From an uncultured Gammaproteobacteria bacterium (lineage in GTDB: Bacteria; Patescibacteriota; Patescibacteriia; UBA9934; GWF2-40-263): 64,000 bases of DNA. The position numbers were made by a program, and so were the translations under genes. Shown here one piece after another: positions 2,687 through 61,637 of this stretch. The first letter of the stretch is position 1. The number at the start of each line of letters is the position of its first letter. Location: positions 393-64,392 of the forward strand of contig CAZIDX010000001.1 in the NCBI GenBank assembly GCA_964538435.1, given 5' to 3'. The notes beneath the pieces are model-generated. The model was not told the DNA's origin, did no database searches, and saw nothing but the letters and a program-made list of their open reading frames with translations.

Positions 2687-3601
2687 ATGACTACTCATGA
2701 GCAAGGCGCCTGCGTGGCACTCGAATGCCAGAACGTCAGCAAGTCCTTCGGAAGCACCCGAGTTCTGACCGACATCAACCTCGAGATCGGAACTGGGCAG
2801 ATTGTGGCCCTGGTCGGTGCGTCCGGCTGCGGCAAGTCCACGCTCCTCAACATGATCGTGGGCACACATCGGCCTTCCACGGGTCTGATCTACACGGTCC
2901 AGGACGGGTCCAAGACCCATGTGCAGACGCACGGTCCTGACCGCGGTATGGTCTACCAGAACTACAGCCTGTACCCGCACCTGACCGCGCTGAGGAACGT
3001 GACGCTCGGGCCCATGCTGCACGAGACGTCCATTCCTGGCCGCTGGCTGGGCTGGATCACGGGTTCGTGGCGCCAGCTGCGACGCGAGCATCAGGGCAAG
3101 GCCATGAAGCTCCTCACCGAGCTCGGTCTGGGTGAGCACGCTCACAAGTACCCGCACCAGCTCTCGGGTGGGAAGCGCCAGCGCGTGGCCATTGCCCGAT
3201 CCCTGATCATGGATCCCCAGATCCTGCTGCTCGACGAGCCCTTCGGAGCGCTCGACGAGGAAACGCGCAATGACGCGCGCCGCCTGTTGCTGGACCTCTA
3301 CGGCAAGGTGACCATCCTGATGGTGACCCACTCGCTCGAAGAGGCTGTGCACGTGGGTGACCGTGTGATCGCGCTTGGGAAGAACTGGAACGGCGGCGAG
3401 CGCGGTGCAACCGTGATCTACGACAAGCCGGCTCCGGTCTACATCTCCAGCGACCCGCTGCAGGACACCAAGATCATCGAGCAGGCCCAAGAGATCTTCC
3501 GGGCCATGTTCGAAAGCCCGAACCTCGACCCTACCGAGTACGTCACCTTCTGGGACGACGTCAAGGCCGGGCGGGTCGAAGGGGTCCTGGCATCGCGCTA
3601 G
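2687..3601 (+). CDS. ABC transporter ATP-binding protein (NitT/TauT family) with a C-terminal extension of about 50 aa
   Basis: RBS AAGGAGGA before ATG 2687; Walker A GASGCGKST, ABC signature LSGGKRQR, Walker B LLLDEPFGALD. The ORF-track start at 2438 overlaps the permease frame. Confidence 0.85.
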   Translation: MTTHEQGACVALECQNVSKSFGSTRVLTDINLEIGTGQIVALVGASGCGKSTLLNMIVGTHRPSTGLIYTVQDGSKTHVQTHGPDRGMVYQNYSLYPHLTALRNVTLGPMLHETSIPGRWLGWITGSWRQLRREHQGKAMKLLTELGLGEHAHKYPHQLSGGKRQRVAIARSLIMDPQILLLDEPFGALDEETRNDARRLLLDLYGKVTILMVTHSLEEAVHVGDRVIALGKNWNGGERGATVIYDKPAPVYISSDPLQDTKIIEQAQEIFRAMFESPNLDPTEYVTFWDDVKAGRVEGVLASR

Positions 3602-3668
3602 GACAAACAAAACGAGCTCAGCTCGAACGAGAGCGAGGCCCACAAAGCCTCGCTCTTTCTACATCAGA

Positions 3669-3684
3669 CTCGGGGAAATCCGAG
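3669..3684 (+). promoter_or_regulatory. Conserved leader hairpin, copy C (CTCGG-GGAAAT-CCGAG) about 35 nt upstream of the AAA+ gene start
   Basis: Same GGGGAAATCC core with covarying flanks; followed by CGATGACCAATCTACAA box shared with copy B. Confidence 0.45.
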
Positions 3685-3719
3685 AACGATGACCAATCTA
3701 CAAACGGAGGATAGACGCG

Positions 3720-5600
3720 ATGAAATTCCGTCATCTCGACTACGAGTTCCGACGTCAGACTGCCAGGATGTTCATGTCCGGGCAGTCGCAGAGCATCATT
3801 CTCCACGGCAACGTGGGGGACTACTTCTACCTGAAGCCCGAGCATTCAGGCAGGGATCCGAAGACCAACGAGATCCTGCACAAGGAAGGCAAGTACGTCA
3901 CCATGCTCGACTACTTGCGTCCGAGGTGGGGGAACGTGGCCAATACCATCCTGCTCGTCTACGAGCTGGGTGGCCCGATCCAGTTCATGTCCAAGGAAGA
4001 CCGCACGCTGTTGCGCGAAGCTTGGCTCAAGTTCCGGACAGAGGAGCTCTGGCAGGAGAACATGAAGGCCGACATCCTGGTCGATCCCAAGGAGGCCGAA
4101 GAACAGGTCGCGTCGCAGTTCAACGAGCTGCTCACTCGAGCCCACAAGGACCCGTCTCAGGCCCTGCGCATTCTGCGCAAGTTCTGCCAGATCTCCCGCT
4201 GGGAACACAAGGACAACCCGATCCGTAATCATCGGATCGTGATCCTGCTCGAGGATGCGGACCTGATCATTCCCGAAGGGGAGATCACGCGCATGAGCGA
4301 CAAGGATCGTCGGCGCATGGTGATCTGTCGGGAGTGGTTCACGGACCCTGGGTTCATGAACGGCGAAGACGCAGTGGTCATGATCGCTGAGTCTGCCAGC
4401 CAGATCAACGGTCGTGTCAGCAAGCTCCCGCAGGTTCTTCGTGTGGCTGTGAACGCTCCTCTGGAGCACGAGCGTGCACACTACATCCGATGGTTCAACG
4501 CCATGCAACCCAAGGATCGCAAGATCAAGCTCTGGGGCACACAGGAAGTACTGGCTGCCTACTCAGCAGGCCTGAACTTGCACGCCCTGCGCCAGATGCT
4601 CGTGGGTGCCACCTACGAGGATCGCAAGCTCGAGAAGAGCGACGTCACTGACCATGTCGAGGCGTACATCATCGCGCAGCTGGGTGAGGGTACGGTCGAG
4701 TTCCATCGGCCACACCACCACCTCAAGGATCTGGTCGGAAACGCAGACGTGATCCGCTTCCTGCGCGAGACCGTGATCCCGCGCATGCTCTCAACCGGCA
4801 AGAGCGCTCTCAGCGGCATTGCTGTCTCAGGCCCTATCGGTGCAGGCAAGACCTTCATCTTCGAGGCTGTGGCTGCCGAACTGGGTATGCCGGTCCTGAT
4901 CCTCAAGAACCTCCGCAGCAAGTGGTTCGGAGGTACGGATGTGATCATGGAGCGGCTCGAGCGCGTGCTCTACAGTCTGTCCAAGGTCGCGATCTTCGTG
5001 GACGAAGCCGACACCGTGTTCGGCGGAGTCGGACAGGACGTACACGCCACCGAGCGCAGGCTCACCGGCAAGATCCAGTCCTGGATGTCAGACCCGCGCC
5101 TCAAGGGCAAGGTGATCTGGATCCTGATGACGGCCCGCGTGCAGAACCTATCCGCAGACATCCGTCGCCCCGGGCGCGTTGGCAACCTGATCATCCCGAT
5201 CCTGGACCCGACCGGCGACGATCGCATTGCGTTCATCAACTGGGCGCTCAAGGGCTACTGCAAGCTTCCTAAGCAGGGGAGCGCAGAATGGATCCGAATC
5301 GAAGAAGCAACCAAGGGTTTCTCGGCCGCGCAGTTCGCTGCACTTCGAGAAGAGCTGGATGCTCAGGTCGAGCTCACAGGCAATGATCTCACCTTCAAGG
5401 ACGCTCTCGAGATCCTAGAAGAACAGCTCTCAGCTGACATCCAGACCGAGCGCCGAGTCCAGGAGCTCTACGCTCTGGTCAACTGCACACGCAAAAGCCT
5501 GCTGCCCGGCGGCAAGGACCTGTCGCGTGCGGATGTCGAGGAGCTGAAGAAGGGGTGGATGAAGGAGATCCACATGCACAAGCGCGCACTCGCCGCTTGA
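3720..5600 (+). CDS. Classic-clade AAA+ ATPase with a degenerate N-terminal AAA-like domain (two-domain architecture)
   Basis: RBS GGAGGA; C-terminal domain has Walker A GPIGAGKT, Walker B IFVDEAD, and an SRH-like RPGRVGN motif. N-terminal half has pseudo Walker A GQSQSIILHGNVGD and Walker B-like VILLEDAD. Confidence 0.75.
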   Translation: MKFRHLDYEFRRQTARMFMSGQSQSIILHGNVGDYFYLKPEHSGRDPKTNEILHKEGKYVTMLDYLRPRWGNVANTILLVYELGGPIQFMSKEDRTLLREAWLKFRTEELWQENMKADILVDPKEAEEQVASQFNELLTRAHKDPSQALRILRKFCQISRWEHKDNPIRNHRIVILLEDADLIIPEGEITRMSDKDRRRMVICREWFTDPGFMNGEDAVVMIAESASQINGRVSKLPQVLRVAVNAPLEHERAHYIRWFNAMQPKDRKIKLWGTQEVLAAYSAGLNLHALRQMLVGATYEDRKLEKSDVTDHVEAYIIAQLGEGTVEFHRPHHHLKDLVGNADVIRFLRETVIPRMLSTGKSALSGIAVSGPIGAGKTFIFEAVAAELGMPVLILKNLRSKWFGGTDVIMERLERVLYSLSKVAIFVDEADTVFGGVGQDVHATERRLTGKIQSWMSDPRLKGKVIWILMTARVQNLSADIRRPGRVGNLIIPILDPTGDDRIAFINWALKGYCKLPKQGSAEWIRIEEATKGFSAAQFAALREELDAQVELTGNDLTFKDALEILEEQLSADIQTERRVQELYALVNCTRKSLLPGGKDLSRADVEELKKGWMKEIHMHKRALAA

Positions 5601-8480: not shown

Positions 8481-8664
8481 TCACTCCATTGGTTGACGCG
8501 GCCAAGTCGTGGCGGCGTACAGGATTTCCGCTTTAAAAACGGTTCTGACGCAGCGGTCAGACGACGAAAAATACCACAAAATGGTACTTTTGTCAACCTC
8601 TGGAGCCAAAAAACACACAAAAATGGATGCTTTTTATGGATTCGACCCTGGGGAAATCTCTTTG

Positions 8665-8692
8665 TTTACAAAAAAAATACCTTGTGTATAAT
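8665..8692 (+). promoter_or_regulatory. Sigma70-type promoter (TTTACA-N16-TGTGTATAAT, extended -10) for the 8734 gene
   Basis: Read directly from the sequence; a GGGGAAATC motif sits just upstream at 8650-8658. Confidence 0.55.
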
Positions 8693-8733
8693 CCGTTTCG
8701 AAGCATTCATTTCTATTAATCCTTAGGAGGAGT

Positions 8734-9177
8734 ATGGATATCCAAACACTTTTTAAACTCGAGATCGGTGAAACCGTTCGAGTCTCCAACGAGCCACTCA
8801 CGCTCATTGGACGATCTACAATCACATTTGATGGCGGTGACGAGCTTGTCTGGCTCTTTGATGAAGACGAGCGCATTCTCTCAGTCGCACCAGAGGAAGA
8901 AGAGCTTTTCTTGTTTGAAAAACTTGATGAAGAAATCGAGCCAGACGAAGAGGGGATTCTTTACCAAGGAAAAGAGTACGAATTCCACTACAAAGACACA
9001 GGTGTGGTGACAGAGGTAGAGGGCGACGTCATAACCGAGCCAGACGACACCTACTTGTACATGGACTACGAAGCAAAGGATGGGGGTGTGCTGCGCATTG
9101 TCAGCAACGAGAATACAGGTGAAGCAGGTGCCTATGTTGGCCGCACGGTTTCAGAAGATGATCTAAACGAGCTGTAG
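8734..9177 (+). CDS. Small acidic cytoplasmic protein, possibly DUF4178-like
   Basis: RBS AGGAGGAG; 147 aa; family assignment is from memory only. Confidence 0.45.
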   Translation: MDIQTLFKLEIGETVRVSNEPLTLIGRSTITFDGGDELVWLFDEDERILSVAPEEEELFLFEKLDEEIEPDEEGILYQGKEYEFHYKDTGVVTEVEGDVITEPDDTYLYMDYEAKDGGVLRIVSNENTGEAGAYVGRTVSEDDLNEL

Positions 9178-9202
9178 GTTTCAGACAAACGAAAATCTTG
9201 CT

Positions 9203-9236
9203 AAAATAGAGATGGCAAAATGCCGTCTCTATTTTG
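9203..9236 (+). terminator. Rho-independent terminator (13-bp stem AAATAGAGATGGC/GCCGTCTCTATTT + T-run)
   Basis: Near-perfect hairpin followed by TTTTG; the ORF-track start at 9212 lies inside this hairpin. Confidence 0.7.
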
Positions 9237-9244
9237 ATATTCTC

Positions 9245-10450
9245 ATGAAAAAAGCGATCTCATTCATCGTTCTGGGTGTGGTGGTTGTGCTTTCTGTCAC
9301 AGCAGCCACATATATCGTGCTCATGCAGCTGGATCCTGATCTTGAAGTACGTAAAATGATGATAGCAATGGCCAGCCTCGAGACAGTGAGGCAAGACTCA
9401 GGCTTTAGCTGGACGCGCGGAGAAGGCAGTGAGCGCATAAACACAACACTCTACACAACAGGCCAGATAAGCATTGATGATGAGGCTAATCTCCAGCACG
9501 CAACACAGTTTCGGGTTGTGCACATGGGGGCGGATAATTCGTACTCAGACCTCTCAGGCGAATTCCGAATGCTAGAGGATGCAAGCTACCTCACATACAC
9601 ACCTCCAGGCCCAAGCGTAGACGGCGTGTCGTTTGATCAAGAGCAAACCTGGATTGCATTCGCTCAAGATGAGCTGCTCTCCTGGGGGGCTGTGCTACCG
9701 GGTCTTGAGCTTCCAATCGCTTTGAGTGAACAGAAAATATCCTGGACCCCAGACGTATTCGCGCGCCTCCGTTACCTGCTTTCCTCAACAGATGTTTTCA
9801 TCGCCCAAGCAAGTGGACTCACACAGATCGTAGGGAATGCAAACACAAGAATAATTGATGCAACGTTTGACCCAGATGTTGTAGAAGCCTTCCTGCGTGA
9901 CATTGTGCGCGCAAAGCAAGGGCGAGACCCAACAGAAGACGAACGAGAGCTTGTGGCCAAGCAGGCCGAGCAGATTAAGCGATTAACATTCAGGTTCTGG
10001 ATCGGCACACAGGATCATTATCTTTATAAACTACAAGCCGCTGGCGCCTTCTCAGATCCAGAAACAAATGACCTAATCCCAGTTGACATCAAGGTAGAGT
10101 TTGAGGACTTCAACGAACCATTCGACATTGACGAGCCCAATGACCCACTCCTTTTTGAGCAAGTACTCAGGTCAGTGTTTGCTGACCTGCCAGATTCAGA
10201 AGCGCTCACACTGGGAGGGGTAAACAAGGTGCTAGTAACAGATGAAACAGCAAGGCTGCCAGTAGAGGAGGTGGAGGAATCAACCGACCAAGATGAGGAT
10301 GGGCTTAGCAATGTTCTTGAGGCGTTCTACGGCACCAATCCAAACGACCCTGACACAGATGGTGATGGGGTAACAGACGGCGACGAGGTGCGCAAAGGGC
10401 ATAATCCACGAGGAACCGGGTCATTATTCGGATTCGGGCTAGAGAGATAG
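9245..10450 (+). CDS. Membrane-anchored secreted protein with C-terminal acidic Ca-binding-like repeats (DxDxDGxxDxDE)
   Basis: N-terminal TM segment (ISFIVLGVVVVLSV); C-terminus has TDQDEDGLSN...NPNDPDTDGDGVTDGDE, resembling thrombospondin-type-3-like motifs. Start moved to ATG 9245, downstream of the terminator. Confidence 0.5.
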   Translation: MKKAISFIVLGVVVVLSVTAATYIVLMQLDPDLEVRKMMIAMASLETVRQDSGFSWTRGEGSERINTTLYTTGQISIDDEANLQHATQFRVVHMGADNSYSDLSGEFRMLEDASYLTYTPPGPSVDGVSFDQEQTWIAFAQDELLSWGAVLPGLELPIALSEQKISWTPDVFARLRYLLSSTDVFIAQASGLTQIVGNANTRIIDATFDPDVVEAFLRDIVRAKQGRDPTEDERELVAKQAEQIKRLTFRFWIGTQDHYLYKLQAAGAFSDPETNDLIPVDIKVEFEDFNEPFDIDEPNDPLLFEQVLRSVFADLPDSEALTLGGVNKVLVTDETARLPVEEVEESTDQDEDGLSNVLEAFYGTNPNDPDTDGDGVTDGDEVRKGHNPRGTGSLFGFGLER

Positions 10451-20859: not shown

Positions 20860-21254
20860 AGAAAAATATAAGCAAACAAAAAAACGGCCTGCGGCCGCGT
20901 TCTTCCTACGCAATTCGTAAATTGAGTCTAACGTCGTTTTCACGTTTTGTCAAAAAACGAATCCACACCCTCATCTCCAAACTATTGACAAATCAATACG
21001 CCCACCTTCAGGTCGAGGATCAAGACGAACTCGACTAACCAGAGCACGACACTCTGACCCCCCCAAAAGGGGGTTTTCATTTTCAAACACGTAAAAACGT
21101 AACAAAACGTAACCCGGTTACGGAGTTTTAGCTAAGGTAAGTACTTTTGTCGAGGTCTTAGGCACATATGCGTCGATCGTCGCATATGTGCCTAAACAAA
21201 AAGCTTCGAGCTGAAGTCCGAGGGCCTTCGGTGGAGTATTAGAAAAGAGCAGCT

Positions 21255-23344: not shown

Positions 23345-23373
23345 TTGACAAAATGGCGAAAATCGAGTATTCT
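23345..23373 (+). promoter_or_regulatory. Sigma70-type promoter TTGACA-N17-TATTCT preceding a leader of about 235 nt
   Basis: Read directly from the sequence; a terminator hairpin for the upstream gene lies at about 23297-23323. Confidence 0.5.
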
Positions 23374-23607
23374 CCAATCTTCTTTACCCAATACCAAGGC
23401 AACTATCGCAGCCAAAAATTGCATAGAAACACTCCATGTTCCCTCATGAACAACAACAGCTCAGAGGTTTTTGCAGGGAGTTTTTGTTTTGTGGTCGCTC
23501 GTGCTCAATGGAGGCTTTGCACGGGTTGTCACCGAACAGGTATTACGCCTGAAACGAACAACCTCCCATGCGCTTTTTGCGCTTCCTGTTCATCACAAGG
23601 AGACTTC

Positions 23608-26430
<2,823 letters not shown>

Positions 26431-29354: not shown

Positions 29355-29843
29355 TAGCGCCTCCAGTCTTGATTCAGGTATTGACCTTAAGTCTCTTGCA
29401 TAAAAAAGTCAAAAGGAAAACTCAGCCGAGTGGCTGAGTCCGTGACGTTACGCTCCAAGGGTAAGACCCCCGGCAGCGAAATCTGAGGCAATCACTTCAA
29501 TCAGGTTGAGTACTGATAGAAGTGACGTCTCAAGCTGGCCCGCAAGGAGCGGGAAGAAGAGTTGAAGGACCAGCAATGTCATCACGAGCATAAAGAGGCT
29601 TCGCATATGGATCGTTGGTTAGATCCAGGGGCCGCAGAGCTGACTAAGCCCTGAGTCGGATGACGTTTGCATGGTCACCTCATCCCTTGGGGTAATCCGC
29701 CGAAACTCAGCACATCGCTCCAAGAGACAAGAGACATTTGTGGGACATACGATAATAGCAAGAAAACCGTCTTTTGTCAACCCAAAAGATGTCCATGAAT
29801 AACAAAAATGCTCAATCGAAAAACCCCACCGGAGTGAGGTCTG

Positions 29844-30037: not shown

Positions 30038-30426
30038 TGCGCAAGCACCCTGATTGTCGCCGAACAATACTTCTCGCCATTGAGTCTGTGGCAACACACC
30101 AGGAACGGCTGCTCCTTCTCACGCACATCGAATGCGCGCACGGTGTAGCCTGCCTGCTCACAGCGCTTGCATCCAAGCTGCTTTGCCTCCTCAGTGGTCC
30201 AGGTGTGAGCAACCCAAGCGTCGAAGTAGCCGACTGCCTCCACCGCTTCGATGGCATCCTGCTCCGTGATCTTTCTCGTGTTCACAACTGTCTGCTCACC
30301 ATCCTCAAGCCCCATGGCACGCTCGCGCATGGCAATGAAGCTCGGGATCGCAATAGCAGCAATGATGCCGATCATGGCGATGACGACCATCAGCTCGATC
30401 AGGGTGAATGCGCGCTCGCTACTCAT
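30028..30426 (-). CDS. Type IV pilin-like / pseudopilin protein (prepilin-type N-terminal domain)
   Basis: MSSERA|FTLIELMVVIAMIGIIAAIAIP class-III signal; C-terminal cysteine pairs including FLVCC. Confidence 0.7.
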   Translation of the reverse strand: MSSERAFTLIELMVVIAMIGIIAAIAIPSFIAMRERAMGLEDGEQTVVNTRKITEQDAIEAVEAVGYFDAWVAHTWTTEEAKQLGCKRCEQAGYTVRAFDVREKEQPFLVCCHRLNGEKYCSATIRVLAHEH

Positions 30427-30581
30427 CGGCTGACCTCGGAGGTCTCCTCGACCTGAGCAGGCTCATGCGCGCTGTTCCACTTCTCATTGTATTGATGTGC
30501 GACGTACATGACGATTGCAATCGCGATGATGAACAGCACGATCATGATCTCACCAACACCGAATCCTCTCAGGAATCTCAT
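30423..30581 (-). CDS. Micro-ORF (52 aa) hydrophobic peptide between the two pilin genes, not in the ORF track
   Basis: RBS GGAGAAAGGAGAG; MRFLRGFGVGEIMIVLFIIAIAIVMYVAHQY...; its TGA overlaps the ATG of the pilin gene. Confidence 0.4.
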   Translation of the reverse strand: MRFLRGFGVGEIMIVLFIIAIAIVMYVAHQYNEKWNSAHEPAQVEETSEVSR

Positions 30582-30698
30582 TGAAGGCTCTCCTTTCTCC
30601 AGACAACGACATTACGCAGAAGATGCAGTTTTGTCAAGAATCAGAAAACCCCACCAGCGGCGGGGTCGTTGTCGAATATCTCGGCTTTCTCTACTCGC

Positions 30699-31106
30699 TC
30701 ATCTCTTGAAAAGGATGATGCAAGCCTTGTGTGTGCCAGTGCCTCGGCAGCACACTAGGAAGTTGTGCTCCTCCTCGTGAGAGTCCGAGGCTGTGACTTC
30801 GTACGCACGCAGGTCACGACACGCACAATCACTGTTCCTGAGGTCATGACCCCAGTCCTTGGTTATGATCGGGGAGAGATACCCCGCGTTCGTCATGGTC
30901 ACGAGTGCATCACCAGCCGTGGGATAGCGATCTTCCGTGCTCAGTCCATGATTGACATTGTCGTTCTTGGGTCTCTCTTGCATCGCAATGAAGTTCGGGA
31001 TCACGATCGCTGCCAGCAGGCCCACGATTGCACACACGACCATCAACTCGATCAGCGTCAAGCCGCTACGGCTCTTGTTCATGATTCCCTCCAGGGTCAG
31101 AAGCAA
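30699..31106 (-). CDS. Type IV pilin-like protein (prepilin peptidase site KSRSG|LTLIELMVV)
   Basis: Canonical G|LTLIELMVV prepilin N-terminus; C-terminal Cys pairs and FLVCC shared with the paralog. Confidence 0.7.
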   Translation of the reverse strand: MLLTLEGIMNKSRSGLTLIELMVVCAIVGLLAAIVIPNFIAMQERPKNDNVNHGLSTEDRYPTAGDALVTMTNAGYLSPIITKDWGHDLRNSDCACRDLRAYEVTASDSHEEEHNFLVCCRGTGTHKACIILFKR

Positions 31107-31112
31107 GAGACA

Positions 31113-31141
31113 ATAATAGTCAAAAAACCATCATTTGTCAA
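31113..31141 (-). promoter_or_regulatory. Consensus sigma70 promoter TTGACA-N17-TATTAT driving the pilin cluster
   Basis: Minus-strand reading: ggTTGACAaatgatggttttttgacTATTATtgtc. Confidence 0.65.
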
Positions 31142-31218
31142 CCAGGGGATACCATATAAGTGCCGATCGGACCTTATATGGTATCCCCAAAGAGTATTCA
31201 GCCCAATTAGAAAACCCG
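31116..31218. repeat. 103-bp direct repeat, copy 1 (promoter + 44-bp palindrome + CAATTAGAAAACCC)
   Basis: Near-identical to 33663-33765; contains the palindrome 31145-31188 (GGGGATACCATATAAG-TGCCGATCGGAC-CTTATATGGTATCCCC). Confidence 0.8.
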
Positions 31219-31300
31219 TCTACACTCAACTGAGTATTGACGGGTCGTGACCGTTAATGCACTTCAGACACCGGACCAGCTGGTCCGCAGCTCAAGTACT

Positions 31301-31585
31301 CTAACGCTCTTGTCGTTCGTCCAGGAGCTGTTGCTGCTCCTTCATGCGGTCGTTGAGCTCCTCGAGCTCTTCGAGCACAGCCGGTCCGTTGGCGAACCAG
31401 CGCACGAGCTGCAGGCGCATCTCCGTGCTGCAGTGGCGCAGCAGGTACTCGGCAACAGCCATGGCGATGCCGCGCTTGATCAGCTCGCGGAAGATCAGCA
31501 GGACCGCGATGATGCCGATCAGGCTGATGACCTCGCTGAGGATGCTGATGATCTGAGCGGTTCCGATGAGTCCTTCTTCCATCAC
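31301..31585 (-). CDS. Small membrane protein (94 aa) downstream of the SPFH gene
   Basis: Hydrophobic core IISILSEVISLIGIIAVLLIF; a rho-independent terminator follows on the minus strand at 31206-31247. Confidence 0.45.
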   Translation of the reverse strand: MMEEGLIGTAQIISILSEVISLIGIIAVLLIFRELIKRGIAMAVAEYLLRHCSTEMRLQLVRWFANGPAVLEELEELNDRMKEQQQLLDERQER

Positions 31586-32805
31586 CGACCTCCTTCTTCG
31601 ATGCTCATGTCCAGACCCAGGTCACGGGCGGTCTGCACCGTGAGGAGCTGGATCATGTCCGTGGCCGCGGAGCCAGACACGGTGGGGTCACCACCCATCA
31701 TGACTTCCGGCACCCAGCGCTGCTTGCCGATCTCGGCAGCGTACAGACCGTTGACCTGGACCCACGCTGCGAGCTTCTGCTCGAGCGCGCCGTCGGCCTT
31801 CATGGTCAGACGCTTGCGCTCGGCATCGCCTTCACCGCGCAAGATCTGCTCGGCCTTGTAGAACTCGGCTGCTTCCATCTCGAGCTGCGCGACTTCCTTC
31901 TTCTGCTCGGCCTCGGTGACAGCCTTGGCCTTGAGGACCTCCTGCTGCCACTTGGCACGGGCGGCCTCGGCCTCACCTTGCTTGGCTACGGTCTTGGCCT
32001 GCTGGTCGGCCTTGAGCGCATCCGCGATCGCGGACTGGACTTCCATGGTCGCGTCCTGCTGACGCTGGATCTGCTCCTCGACCTTGGGGTCGTAGTCGAT
32101 GCTGTTGACCGTGAAGTTGAAGGCGCGGATCTGGAACTCGGTCAAGGGAGAGTCTTCCTGGCGCATGTAGCCGCCACTCTCGTTCTCCACGAGTTCCACG
32201 AGGTTGATCACTCGTTCTTCTCCGGTGAGCGAATCCGTCTCCTTCACGCTTCGCGTGCGGGTGCGGTACACACCGTTGCTGACCTGATCACCGACGATCT
32301 GGATCAGCTCGGTGCGTCGGTCCGCGTAGCTCTCCTTGGAGCTCATGAGCGGGCCAGACATGAAGACCGCCTTGTTCACCACCTGTCCGAGCAGGTCTCG
32401 CTCGATCGCGTGCTGCGAACCGTACTTGGTGTGCAGCTTGCGCAGAGCTTCCTCGTTGAGCGGAAGCTCGAAGCGGAGCGAACCTGAGATAGTGGCAGTA
32501 CCACCATCGTTGAAGCGAACAGGGATCGACTGATCCGTGCCGTCGCCAGTCTCAGGGTCCTTGGTGAACCAGTACTGCGAGGACTTCAGGTAGGTCTCGG
32601 TGCCACCCCAACGGGTGAAGTAGAGACCAGGCTCGGTCCAGAAGTGCAGCTCGCCATCGAACGGGTCCTGTTCGATCACGATCTCGTCTGCACCGACGCG
32701 TTCCCACGCCGTGAAGATCGAGATGGTGCCTCCCAGGATCGCCAGTGCGGTGAGGATTCCCACCACAGCCTTGACGACGGAGCCAATCGGGTTTCTGCGT
32801 GCCAT
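31582..32805 (-). CDS. SPFH/band-7 (flotillin/YqiK-like) membrane protein
   Basis: N-terminal TM helix, SPFH core, long Ala/Glu/Lys-rich coiled-coil (flotillin-like) tail; GC-rich codon usage. Confidence 0.75.
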   Translation of the reverse strand: MARRNPIGSVVKAVVGILTALAILGGTISIFTAWERVGADEIVIEQDPFDGELHFWTEPGLYFTRWGGTETYLKSSQYWFTKDPETGDGTDQSIPVRFNDGGTATISGSLRFELPLNEEALRKLHTKYGSQHAIERDLLGQVVNKAVFMSGPLMSSKESYADRRTELIQIVGDQVSNGVYRTRTRSVKETDSLTGEERVINLVELVENESGGYMRQEDSPLTEFQIRAFNFTVNSIDYDPKVEEQIQRQQDATMEVQSAIADALKADQQAKTVAKQGEAEAARAKWQQEVLKAKAVTEAEQKKEVAQLEMEAAEFYKAEQILRGEGDAERKRLTMKADGALEQKLAAWVQVNGLYAAEIGKQRWVPEVMMGGDPTVSGSAATDMIQLLTVQTARDLGLDMSIEEGGR

Positions 32806-32826
32806 CCTTTCTCCCTATGGAAAGGG

Positions 32827-33171
32827 TTAGTGGTCTGTTGACCGGGGTTGCTGCTTGCGGGAACGACTCCCACGAGCAGAAGTTCCAGGAACCCTGCTGC
32901 GCGCACGGTGCGCACGAGCCTGTTCCTGATGGATGTCATCGAGGAGTTCCTCGATCTCGGCTTCCAAGCGCGCGACCTCAGCTTCAGTATGAGCATCAGC
33001 CAGGTCCAGCCTCATCTGCTCGAGACGTTCCTGCGGGGTCAGGGGCTTGGCAGCCCTACGTCGAAGGATCGGAAAGATCCGTTCGTTCCGAAACACGGGG
33101 AGCGTGATCTGTGTCACGACCCCCACCACGAGTAGAACAAATGCCGCGAAAAGCAGGAATTTGATCAGCAT
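32827..33171 (-). CDS. Membrane-anchored coiled-coil protein (109 aa), first gene of the SPFH module
   Basis: RBS GGAGG before ATG 33171; MLIKFLLFAAFVLLVVGVV TM helix followed by a charged helical tail. Confidence 0.5.
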   Translation of the reverse strand: MLIKFLLFAAFVLLVVGVVTQITLPVFRNERIFPILRRRAAKPLTPQERLEQMRLDLADAHTEAEVARLEAEIEELLDDIHQEQARAHRARSRVPGTSARGSRSRKQQPRSTDH

Positions 33172-33344
33172 CGTAGCCTCCTGGGCGAGGGGACACAACC
33201 GAAAAACCTGAGGTTCTGAAGGTTTTCGGAAGTGTCGAACTTAGTACTTTAAAAGAAGTTTGTCAAGCCAATTTGACGACCCGCAATCATTGGGGGTAGA
33301 GTTCAATTAGTTAAGAGGGAAGTCATTTCATAGAAAGGTAGGTT

Positions 33345-33574
33345 ATGACTGACCAGAAGGAGTACCTTTCAGTTTCTGAGTTTCAAGCTAGAATAAAAAC
33401 CTACATCGATGAAAGGGGGGGCTAAGCGTAGAACAGGTCGCTGACATTTGCCGAGTTCATGTAGGAACTGCAAACAGGTGGTACAGGGGCGTGACAGCAC
33501 CCATGCCACTATCCAGGGCAATCGCCGTGGACCACGTTGAACATTACCTGGAGAGACGAACTTCTGTCGGCTGA
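33345..33574 (+). pseudogene. XRE-family HTH transcriptional regulator interrupted by a frameshift in a G7 homopolymer (33415-33421)
   Basis: RBS AAAGGTAGG; frame 1 gives MTDQKEYLSVSEFQARIKTYIDERGG-stop; the +1 frame continues LSVEQVADICRVHVGTANRWYRGVTAPMPLSRAIAV... (HTH). An eighth G would restore a protein of about 77 aa. Confidence 0.5.
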
Positions 33575-33662
33575 CAGAAGTTACAAATCGGCTTTGCAAC
33601 AAGTCGGTTTTCTTTTTGAAAAGCCAAATAGAAAACCGGTCGTCAGAAGCAAGTGGTGGGGA

Positions 33663-33765
33663 ATAGTCAAAAAACCATCATTTGTCAACCAAGGGATACC
33701 ATATAAGGGCCGATCGGACCTTATATGGTATCCCCAAAGAGTATTCAGCCCAATTAGAAAACCCG
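33663..33765. repeat. 103-bp direct repeat, copy 2 (promoter-like TTGACA + palindrome 33693-33735 + CAATTAGAAAACCC)
   Basis: Same orientation as copy 1; the two copies bracket the SPFH module and the HTH pseudogene. Confidence 0.8.
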
Positions 33766-33798
33766 CTAATCTGTTGTAAGACTGCGGGTTCGAGGTGA

Positions 33799-33978
33799 CT
33801 ACGGAGCGTGGAGTTCGTAGTCTTCGGAAAGAGAGGTGGTTTGCTCAGGGGCAGGGCGTTCACCAAGCACCACAGTGATTGCGAGATAAGCCTCGGTCAG
33901 AAGCCATGCTGCAAGAGCGATTCCGATTGCGCTGAGCAGGAGCTCGAGCGCACTCATACGTCGAGATCCGTAACTCAT
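33799..33978 (-). CDS. Small membrane protein (59 aa)
   Basis: RBS GGAGGA before ATG 33978; a minus-strand terminator hairpin (CCCGC...GCGGG + TTTTCT) lies at 33758-33790. Confidence 0.4.
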   Translation of the reverse strand: MSYGSRRMSALELLLSAIGIALAAWLLTEAYLAITVVLGERPAPEQTTSLSEDYELHAP

Positions 33979-34025
33979 AGAATCCTCCATGTGGGACCCT
34001 ATTATCGACAACAAAATGAGTGCTG

Positions 34026-34769
34026 TCAAACCCTCATCGAGATATGTGAGCTCGAATCCAGGTTGAGTCGAATGATCTCCCGTACGATGGGTTCAACTTC
34101 AGGGAGCACATGGAACCCCTTGGGAGGAAATCTGCCACCGCGCTCAGTCGTGATGATCGGCTCGATCCGACGCAGGAACGCTCTGTGCTCAGGTGTACAC
34201 AGAATCTCGTTGCCAAGCGGATCAGCCAGAATACCCTTACGAGGCACAAAATGTTCGCTACGCTCGGTGTCCCAAAACAAGATGTCCCAGTGAATCCCAT
34301 CCACCATCACCTTGGGAGCAATGCCCGCAAACTTCATGCCAGCAAAGCGCGCCAGGAACGAAGCCTTGGAGTGTCCTTGGGTGGCCTCAGTGAACGCTTG
34401 GATGCCAGCAGCGCGCAGGAAGTTCATGCGAGCCATGACCAGAGCCTTGATCCCACCCGTGAATCTGCGATCAGGATCCGACATCAGGCGCCCCAGCTCC
34501 CACAGACCGCTCTCAAGCTGGATCAGAGCCACATGCGCACAGATGCGCAACCGCTCGTCCACGATCACCCACGAGAAGATCGTGTTCTCGATCCAGCCAG
34601 TGAGGATCTCAGTCCTCCAGGTCTCCACTTTGTTGAGAGTAGAGTGGGGGAACATGGTCTGCCCAGTCTTGTGATTCGTCCAGACCTTCTGGGTCAAGCC
34701 AGCCAGTTGAGTATCCCAATTCGGGATCAGTGCAGGGATGCGATCCGACATGATGATCTGAAAGTTCAT
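34026..34769 (-). CDS. Hypothetical protein
   Basis: 247-aa ORF; no motif recognised. Confidence 0.45.
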   Translation of the reverse strand: MNFQIIMSDRIPALIPNWDTQLAGLTQKVWTNHKTGQTMFPHSTLNKVETWRTEILTGWIENTIFSWVIVDERLRICAHVALIQLESGLWELGRLMSDPDRRFTGGIKALVMARMNFLRAAGIQAFTEATQGHSKASFLARFAGMKFAGIAPKVMVDGIHWDILFWDTERSEHFVPRKGILADPLGNEILCTPEHRAFLRRIEPIITTERGGRFPPKGFHVLPEVEPIVREIIRLNLDSSSHISMRV

Positions 34770-60617: not shown

Positions 60618-61637
60618 CTAGGTTTCGAATCCGTAGCCCAGCGCCGTGCACCAGGTCTCCAGTTCAGGTCGTCTGGAGGAGTGAATGACCAGGATCTCGT
60701 AGTCCCTCTCGTACCTCTCTCGAACCGGCTTGGGGTCCATCAGAGCGAAGCATTGGTTCTGGACATCGATCATCCAGAACTCGAACCCCAGCTTGAGGCT
60801 CATCCCAATGATCGGGTTGCTGTCCCAGGGGGTCTCGCCACCAGCCGAGAGCACATAGCCTCCGCGCTCACCCTTCCACAGTTGCGCCATGGAAATGCCG
60901 ATGGAGTTCCCGTCGACATGCGTTTCATCGAACAGGCCTTCATCCACCATGGACTGCACCATATACGAGAGCTTGTGAGGCATTTCGCGCAAGTGCAGAC
61001 GTTGGTCGATCAGGCATAGATCCGTGTCGATGACCATCCGCTCCGGAATGTCGTCCTCGATCCGCCAGACTTTGTCAGAGTCCGGTCGGTAGAAGTAGCA
61101 CTCCCGGGTCATGATGTCGTAGATACACACACAGATGATCTCATCGTTGCAGATGATTGCACCCATGCTACCGATACCGTGCGATTGACGACGTACATAG
61201 GCGCTCGTCCCATCGATTGGATCGATCACGACCCAGATGTCCAGTGTCGGATGCGTGCACGGGATGATGAGGGGCTGTCCCTTGATCTTGCTCTCCTCAG
61301 CAATGATGCCGAACAACTTGAACTGATTCTGCAGGTCTTCGACCACATCGTCCTGGACGTCTTCGTCGATGTCTGTGACCTTGTCAGTGTGACCATCAGC
61401 CTTGATACCCTTGATGCTCACCTTGGCGTGCCTTCGCATGATGTGGGCTGTACGTGCAGCGCGTCGCAGGATCTCCTTGAAGATCGTGCCGATGTTGTAC
61501 GAGTTCAAGTCGACCCCATAGTCTCTCGTTTGTGTCGTCACGACGTCCTCCTTTTGTATCCCTTCGGGGTGGGTTACAATAGGCCCCGCAAGGGGATGTG
61601 TCAAGGTTTTACCCCTCAATCTTGACAAAAACCACAC
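60618..61637 (-). CDS. Inositol monophosphatase / FBPase-family (IMPase-like) phosphatase
   Basis: DPIDGT and VTDIDEDVQ metal-binding motifs. Confidence 0.65.
   Translation of the reverse strand: MWFLSRLRGKTLTHPLAGPIVTHPEGIQKEDVVTTQTRDYGVDLNSYNIGTIFKEILRRAARTAHIMRRHAKVSIKGIKADGHTDKVTDIDEDVQDDVVEDLQNQFKLFGIIAEESKIKGQPLIIPCTHPTLDIWVVIDPIDGTSAYVRRQSHGIGSMGAIICNDEIICVCIYDIMTRECYFYRPDSDKVWRIEDDIPERMVIDTDLCLIDQRLHLREMPHKLSYMVQSMVDEGLFDETHVDGNSIGISMAQLWKGERGGYVLSAGGETPWDSNPIIGMSLKLGFEFWMIDVQNQCFALMDPKPVRERYERDYEILVIHSSRRPELETWCTALGYGFET

Follow-up and report, generated by a model that had tools for sequence, protein, structure and literature searches.

Two short reading frames meet at a run of seven G residues

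The window, that is, the whole stretch of 64,000 nt analyzed here, contains two short plus-strand reading frames between positions 33345 and 33574 that meet at a homopolymer. The ATG at 33345 opens a frame of 26 codons (ORF part 1, 33345–33425, product MTDQKEYLSVSEFQARIKTYIDERGG), which, as read directly from the sequence, is closed by the TAA stop codon at 33423–33425. The G run is exactly 7 nt long (33415–33421), has an A and a C as neighbors, lies at codons 24–26, and has the TAA directly on its 3′ side. The −1 frame is shut by a TGA at 33410–33412 and open from 33413 to the TGA at 33572–33574; it begins with KGGLSVEQVADICRVHVGTANRWYRGVT, and its 53 codons (ORF part 2, 33413–33574) encode the product KGGLSVEQVADICRVHVGTANRWYRGVTAPMPLSRAIAVDHVEHYLERRTSVG. 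Given these limits, the two open frames overlap by only 10 nt, which contain the G tract. The tract is a simple repeat within an ORF, and its length sets the reading frame: one G more (G8) joins the two parts to a product of 76 aa, and two fewer (G5) to one of 75 aa. The initial annotation had described a ribosome-binding site and an ATG opening a 26-codon ORF that ends at the G7, which direct reading of the sequence bears out; the product restored by one extra G, which had been put at about 77 aa, has to be corrected to 76 aa. Separate translation of ORF part 2 was rejected, as the earliest start codon in the −1 frame is the GTG at 33491, downstream of the helix-turn-helix (HTH) described below.

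Predicted signals for expression bracket the full-length gene. A sigma-70-like promoter, TTGACG-18-TAGAGT (33273–33302 (+)), was recovered in a consensus scan with 9 of 12 matches, although the promoter type of CPR bacteria may differ. A Shine-Dalgarno-like motif, AAGGTAGG (33335–33342 (+)), can be read 3–6 nt 5′ of the ATG. The 3′ structures (33559–33618 (+), z = −1.9) consist of a perfect 10-bp stem (33559–33568/33573–33582) that spans the stop codon of the full-length gene, and of a terminator-like hairpin at 33585–33610 followed by a T-run. Apart from the frame junction, the gene is free of any second lesion and its expression signals are intact. When the C-terminal segment was shuffled, it stayed open over 50 codons in just 10% of the trials. 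A perfect 8-bp inverted repeat (33333–33340/33363–33370) pairs the Shine-Dalgarno region with codons 7–9 and could sequester the ribosome-binding site; however, chance alone would give about 0.3 such repeats in the region, so that this one is not significant. The region from 30500 to 34500 matched no Rfam family.

The joined product resembles XRE/Cro-type HTH proteins

Several independent HTH profiles cover the same residues of the joined product with E values of 1e-5 to 1e-3, each of them below its curated Pfam or NCBIfam threshold. For Pfam HTH_3 (PF01381), the G5 product scored 21.6 bits and the G8 product 16.9 bits, both missing the cut-off of 23. The match of the G5 product comprises residues 17–53, and position 1 of the profile falls on residue 17, inside ORF part 1, whereas ORF part 2 alone scored 16.9 bits with a match beginning at profile position 8. 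HTH_23 (22.3 bits, cut-off 24.6) and HTH_17 (20.5 bits, cut-off 27) likewise stayed below their thresholds; with the G8 product the three Pfam models gave 17–21 bits, and their E-values of 1e-4 to 1e-3 nonetheless exceed the chance level. PHROG 2328, annotated as "transcriptional repressor", matched residues 1–53 with 26.3 bits for G5 and 20.6 bits for G8. Among the NCBIfam models, residues 12–55 also matched VC1465/XafT, a Xer recombination activation factor (19 bits, cut-off 70), and RstR phage repressors (about 16.5 bits); both matches probably represent generic HTH similarity.

A full HMMER pass of the 76-aa query against 1.84 billion representative proteins gave 16 matches, five of which were unrelated surface-protein repeats, while the rest were tandem arrays of XRE-like units. 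The whole-protein E-values of this search are sums over weak tandem repeats, and the top score of a single stretch was 27.5 bits (i-E 0.33); therefore, the hits served as alignment partners and not as proof of homology. How far such sums can reach is illustrated by repeat proteins with the motif ...VADL.ATGT.I.WY...PL... (P0002, P0003, P0006, P0009, and P0012), for which E against the 76-aa query fell between 1e-11 and 1e-4 and which call for caution with whole-protein E-values in the representative search. The nearest XRE-like units align from residue 9–16 on, that is, across the frame junction.

With 21 XRE-like units as alignment, AlphaFold (AF2) returned a model with a pLDDT of 91 and a pTM of 0.79. 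The predicted helices comprise residues 10–24, 29–36, 40–47, and 55–75, with helices 2–3 (residues 29–47) forming the helix-turn-helix, which is the arrangement of the four- to five-helix bundles of the XRE family. In this model, ORF part 1 would supply the N-terminus and helix 1, ORF part 2 the helix-turn-helix and helix 4, and the G tract the turn between helices 1 and 2, as Arg-Gly-(Gly). Because the alignment had been chosen by similarity to the fused sequence, the model is supportive but does not constitute independent evidence; prediction from the single sequence gave a pLDDT of 57 and was unusable. In a Foldseek comparison of the model with the PDB, essentially all of the top 50 matches belonged to the XRE family (prob 0.97–0.99, TM 0.5–0.62, E about 0.1), among them at the top DdrO, ClgR, C.BclI, C.Esp1396I, SinR, lambda cI, 434 Cro, and HipB. 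A sequence search of the PDB with the HTH product found nothing under E = 0.5.

The predicted protein is of similar size to small XRE/Cro-CI repressors of 65–80 aa (C.BclI/C.Esp1396I/C.AhdI, the N-domain of SinR, 434 Cro, the N-domain of DdrO, HipB/HigA), shares with them the four-helix fold with the HTH at helices 2–3, and is likewise encoded divergently beside a putative target operon. It differs from them in that the identity is just 12–27%, every Pfam and NCBIfam cut-off is missed, orthologs were not found, and no partner toxin, restriction-modification, or phage genes lie near the gene.

Relatives of the gene were sought in several collections. Querying a word index of 5.8 billion proteins with the in-frame product gave no match, the HMMER pass over the 1.84 billion representatives contained no true relative, and neither did scans of genome, metagenome, and viral contigs with back-translated patterns. 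The lone genome match, in Sulfuricurvum (L013), was spurious, as it lies antisense within a 261-aa hydrolase-like ORF. No paralogs are present in the 64-kb window. The comparison with orthologs that the initial annotation had proposed as a check thus came back empty for the protein and contig collections searched.

These results also bear on the possibility that there is no gene at all, but a pair of ORFs that arose by chance and carry an accidental HTH-like motif in a long 5′ region of the neighboring SPFH operon. Every family match is under its curated cut-off, the best single stretch among the 1.84 billion proteins reaches 27.5 bits with an i-E of 0.33, the significant whole-protein E-values are repeat sums with five unrelated proteins among the 16 matches, and orthologs were not found. 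Nevertheless, we regard this possibility as extremely improbable: independent HTH profiles fall on the same residues, the homology crosses the frame junction, the fold is modeled with confidence and matched by XRE structures only, the promoter, ribosome-binding site, and terminator are correctly placed, and an antisense ORF of 77 aa at the locus has no family match. Because the sub-threshold family matches, the fold model, and the flanking expression signals agree, we conclude from sequence and modeling that the two ORF pieces represent one putative XRE-type regulator gene with a single frameshift. The initial annotation had already proposed an XRE-type HTH gene broken at the G7, and the frame geometry, the profiles, and the fold matches uphold this.

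The gene lies on a recent insertion in an uncultivated Uhrbacteria genome

By its sequence, the host is an uncultivated groundwater-type Candidatus Uhrbacteria (Patescibacteria/CPR). The housekeeping genes of the window encode PBP2, a Mur ligase, RecQ, HrcA-GrpE-DnaK-DnaJ, Tgt, and ClpB, and the named relatives of its DnaK are all Uhrbacteria. The nearest relative that was found via DnaK is GCA_900089805.1 (94% identity), the locus of which (L014) shares synteny with the window over an APH gene, pilin-like genes, a 209/247-aa gene, a Na+/H+ exchanger, PP2C, and hrcA-grpE-dnaK. In this relative hrcA is represented by two ORFs (8598–9299; 126 aa with the winged-helix part and 86 aa with the HrcA C-domain), whereas the window has a single gene of 233 aa; the split may reflect a frameshift in the relative or faulty assembly of that MAG.

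The HTH gene is oriented divergently to an operon on the minus strand (31301–33198) that comprises genes for a small TM/coiled-coil protein (32827–33171/33198), an SPFH/Band-7 protein (31582–32805), and a 93/94-aa protein (31301–31585). Both units are enclosed by direct repeats. Copy 1 (104 nt, 31115–31218) includes a palindrome (31146–31187) and, on the minus strand, the promoter TTGACA-17-TATTAT that belongs to the pilin-like gene at 30699–31106, while copy 2 (33662–33765) is 98% identical, with its palindrome at 33693–33734 and the −10 element degraded to TATTCC. The position claimed in the initial annotation, divergent to the SPFH module and inside the direct repeats, agrees with these ORF and repeat coordinates.

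Alignment with the relative shows that window positions 30315–31144 correspond to 3499–4362 of its locus and positions 33795–34769 to 4392–5365, whereas the intervening segment 31145–33794 is represented by about 30 nt (4362–4392). In a second relative (L017, DnaK 85% identical), both the HTH and the SPFH gene are missing. Since the block is missing from the syntenic locus of the nearest relative, the HTH gene and the SPFH operon constitute a lineage-specific insertion of 2.55 kb. It contains the 93-aa, SPFH, small-TM, and HTH genes together with one repeat copy, and no integrase. The 98% identity of the direct repeats indicates that the insertion is recent. It may have arisen by homologous integration of the Campbell type or with the help of a recombinase acting in trans, or the relative may have undergone a deletion. 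A circular, excised form of the block was considered on account of the ends of two Logan contigs (L001 and L003) and found unsupported, because these ends lie exactly at the places where the k = 31 graph should branch for the integrated form with two slightly different repeats.

Each repeat copy carries one near-perfect 42-nt palindrome, GGGATACCATATAAGGGCCGATCGGACCTTATATGGTATCCC, which does not occur at the locus of the nearest relative and had no match in the JGI metagenome contigs; from its sequence, it could act as a terminator in both directions or represent a small mobile element of palindromic type. On the minus strand, similar promoter modules (TTGACA-17-TATTAT) are found at 29749–29782, 30606–30639, and 31110–31143, 5′ of tandem pilin-like (N_methyl) genes. 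From the further copy at 33657–33690 (−), with the degraded −10 element TATTCC, transcription would run antisense across the HTH gene and on into the SPFH operon. The GC3 value is 0.81 for the SPFH gene, 0.51 for the HTH gene, and about 0.45–0.55 for housekeeping genes. Values of 0.74–0.79 were also observed for three other genes of the window (3720–5600, 23353–26430, and 60618–61637), and the GC content per kb varies from 45% to 65% within the window. This heterogeneous composition suggests mosaic acquisition.

Homologs of the SPFH protein with 75–61% identity were found at nine loci (L004–L012) with unrelated neighborhoods. The pair of small-TM and SPFH genes is kept there and no HTH gene lies nearby; thus, the HTH gene is not a conserved partner of the SPFH module. 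In the window, the regulator may act as a repressor or autoregulator of the 146-nt divergent intergenic region. Directly 5′ of the start of the small-TM gene, this region contains an imperfect 21-nt inverted repeat (33192–33236, 76% complementary), a candidate operator or 5′-UTR hairpin. A motif TTGTCAA/TTGACGA is also present in the region, at the −35 element.

The G7 tract is probably real

Homopolymers are the classic place of length miscalls, and the initial annotation had offered a sequencing error as one way to account for the break; the true genome would then have G8 and an intact gene. The proteins of the window recur on a 285-kb NCBI contig and in the Logan assemblies of SRR8146440/SRR8146441, the only two runs in which the lineage was detected. 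A Logan contig from SRR8146440 (L001) is identical base for base to window positions 31189–33738, the G7 included, and two further Logan contigs (L002 and L003) likewise show no difference from the window. Two different assemblers thus arrived at G7, but the MAG and the Logan contigs are probably built from the same reads and are therefore not fully independent. Moreover, almost all of the roughly 60 other homopolymers of at least 6 nt lie inside intact long ORFs. Runs such as A8, T8, A7, and G6 are found in uninterrupted conserved genes (those for PBP2, RecQ, GrpE, DnaJ, and ClpB, the genes for GrpE and ClpB containing runs of A8 and T8), so that miscalls are not characteristic of this assembly. 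The window has six G6 tracts (9684, 13859, 27599, 49375, 50078, and 57963). In addition, the word search of 5.8 billion proteins revealed no G8 product called in any collection. The G7 is therefore probably real, and an artefact of sequencing or assembly appears quite improbable.

Recoding and phase variation as alternatives to inactivation

Stops flank the tract closely in both frames, a geometry that is also typical of recoding sites. A low level of full-length regulator could be made from the G7 template either by a −1 slip of the ribosome on G_GGG_GGC beside the TAA, or by an RNA polymerase that stutters and adds a G. The zero-frame sequence G GGG GGC (33416–33422) formally matches the pattern X XXY YYZ with the TAA directly after it, and because the −1 frame opens three codons upstream, the window for a productive slip coincides exactly with the G tract. 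The run AGGGGGG additionally resembles a Shine-Dalgarno sequence. In bacteria, −1 frameshifting is efficient at heptamers of the A AAA AAG kind, and bacterial transcriptional slippage mainly requires A/T runs of at least 9 nt. As in dnaX (A AAA AAG) and orfAB of IS3/IS1, the −1 ORF overlaps on a slippery-looking heptamer with the zero-frame stop close by; in contrast to them, the heptamer is not A/U-rich, no hairpin or pseudoknot follows, and the upstream product is not functional alone. A precedent for slippage on G strings exists in the thymidine kinase of herpes simplex virus, where a run of 7–8 G with a 1-nt indel in the coding sequence is compensated by low-level frameshifting (PMC5009743). 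That gene is eukaryotic viral and its G-run slippage yields some full-length protein, whereas a full-length product of the HTH locus would be hypothetical. When four windows downstream of the heptamer were folded, no stimulatory RNA structure emerged (z = −0.13 to −0.91 relative to shuffled sequences). No function can be recognized in the 26-aa product of the zero frame, and orthologs that could reveal conservation were not found. Recoding is very improbable as an explanation for the locus.

Evolved phase variation, which the initial annotation had raised as a possibility, would make the G tract a contingency site that turns the regulator reversibly on (G8 or G5) and off (G7 or G6); slipped-strand gain or loss of one G would then toggle expression of the divergent SPFH operon among members of the population. 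In favor of this, the homopolymer is situated near the start of the ORF and encodes a turn in which an additional Gly is tolerated, there is no other lesion, and the expression signals are intact. The tract also consists of minority codons: AGG accounts for 11% of the Arg codons and GGG for 16% of the Gly codons, and AGGGGG does not occur among the 31 Arg-Gly dicodons counted for 24 genes, so that a G tract is not expected from codon usage. Furthermore, G/C tracts of 7 nt are the accepted lower limit for switching, as exemplified by glpK of Mycobacterium tuberculosis (PMC10334774). However, the rate measured for a 7G tract in M. smegmatis is about 3e-8 per generation (PMC10334774), far below that of classical contingency loci.

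The G/C 7-mers of the window are not enriched, either. GGGGGGG was seen twice in total when both strands of the 64 kb were counted, compared with an expectation of 3.46 ± 2.25 (about 3.5), and the over-representation of G/C tracts that characterizes contingency loci is therefore lacking in the 64 kb counted. The non-random aspect is that the G7 coincides with a frame junction inside a recognizable HTH domain. The other G/C 7-mer is a C7 at 21058–21064 (+) in an intergenic region, about 115 nt upstream of the start of RecQ (20943, minus strand); by its position, it could be a promoter-region tract.

No variant of the tract length was encountered in the assemblies and protein collections examined, and the sole other assembly that runs across the tract also has G7. 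Orthologs that could show conservation of the tract were not found. In addition, the HTH profiles and 20 of the 21 aligned XRE-like units fit a G5 spacing better than a G8 spacing, which suggests that the ancestor had a plain AGG-GGG Arg-Gly dicodon to which two G were added, and not a long, pre-adapted tract. Taking both sides together, we consider evolved phase variation unlikely, albeit worth keeping in view.

A recent inactivating slip as the favored explanation

We lean towards the view that an orphan or accessory regulator was inactivated soon after its acquisition by a slipped-strand frameshift of recent date, and hence towards an ordinary mutation and not an evolved switch. A gene for an XRE/Cro-type regulator of 75–76 aa would have arrived with its own promoter-like site, ribosome-binding site, and terminator on the recent 2.55-kb insertion, together with the small-TM/SPFH operon. 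A slipped-strand change in length would then have hit the G run that encodes the turn between helices 1 and 2. With G7, translation from the ATG at 33345 would halt after 26 residues, and as there is no separate route to translation of the DNA-binding helices, the sampled population would carry a null allele of the regulator. The inactivation would be slowly reversible at best. The lack of a second lesion, the intact expression signals, and the near-identical repeats argue that the break is recent. A decaying gene had been named as an alternative in the initial annotation; it is the reading with the best support, provided that the decay is taken to be recent. Against it speak that an otherwise pristine gene would also fit a locus maintained for switching between ON and OFF, and that the tract is composed of minority codons.

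The locus shares with known phase-variable tracts (glpK of M. tuberculosis, poly-G genes of Neisseria and Campylobacter, and rmpA of Klebsiella) the location of a G/C run in the 5′ part of the coding region, where a change of ±1 truncates the product; in principle, the same tract could restore the HTH gene. It is set apart from them by the absence of observed length polymorphism, by a tract of the minimum defining length, and by the lack of genomic enrichment. Poly-G tracts in regulator genes are reportedly already known from a preprint study (bioRxiv 10.1101/2025.09.12.675794). The lesion is of the well-known homopolymer-frameshift kind, in a new instance and in a phylum without described switching; no paper that connects "Patescibacteria" with phase variation came up when the literature was searched.

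As it stands, the finding is unexceptional: a small orphan regulator carries a frameshift at a homopolymer. Its main value is for annotation, since the locus deserves the label of a frameshifted HTH gene and should not be left as empty intergenic DNA. A firmer by-product is the 2.55-kb insertion itself, flanked by 104-nt direct repeats with palindromes in an Uhrbacteria genome, for which the states before and after can be compared cleanly. It is decidedly unlikely that the tract acts as a true contingency switch in a CPR/Patescibacteria genome, with an XRE repressor that is turned reversibly ON and OFF, arrived with the newly acquired small-TM/SPFH module, and gates it. An extension of this reading is more speculative still: the block has no integrase, its direct repeats bear palindromes, and the HTH faintly resembles Xer-activating and RstR-type factors, all of which hints at a miniature integrative element in which the tract would toggle the regulator. 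If the tract were such a switch, this would be the first phase-variable regulator described in the episymbiotic CPR radiation, and heterogeneity of the tract would link an XRE repressor to the control of a horizontally acquired SPFH/stomatin-like membrane module.
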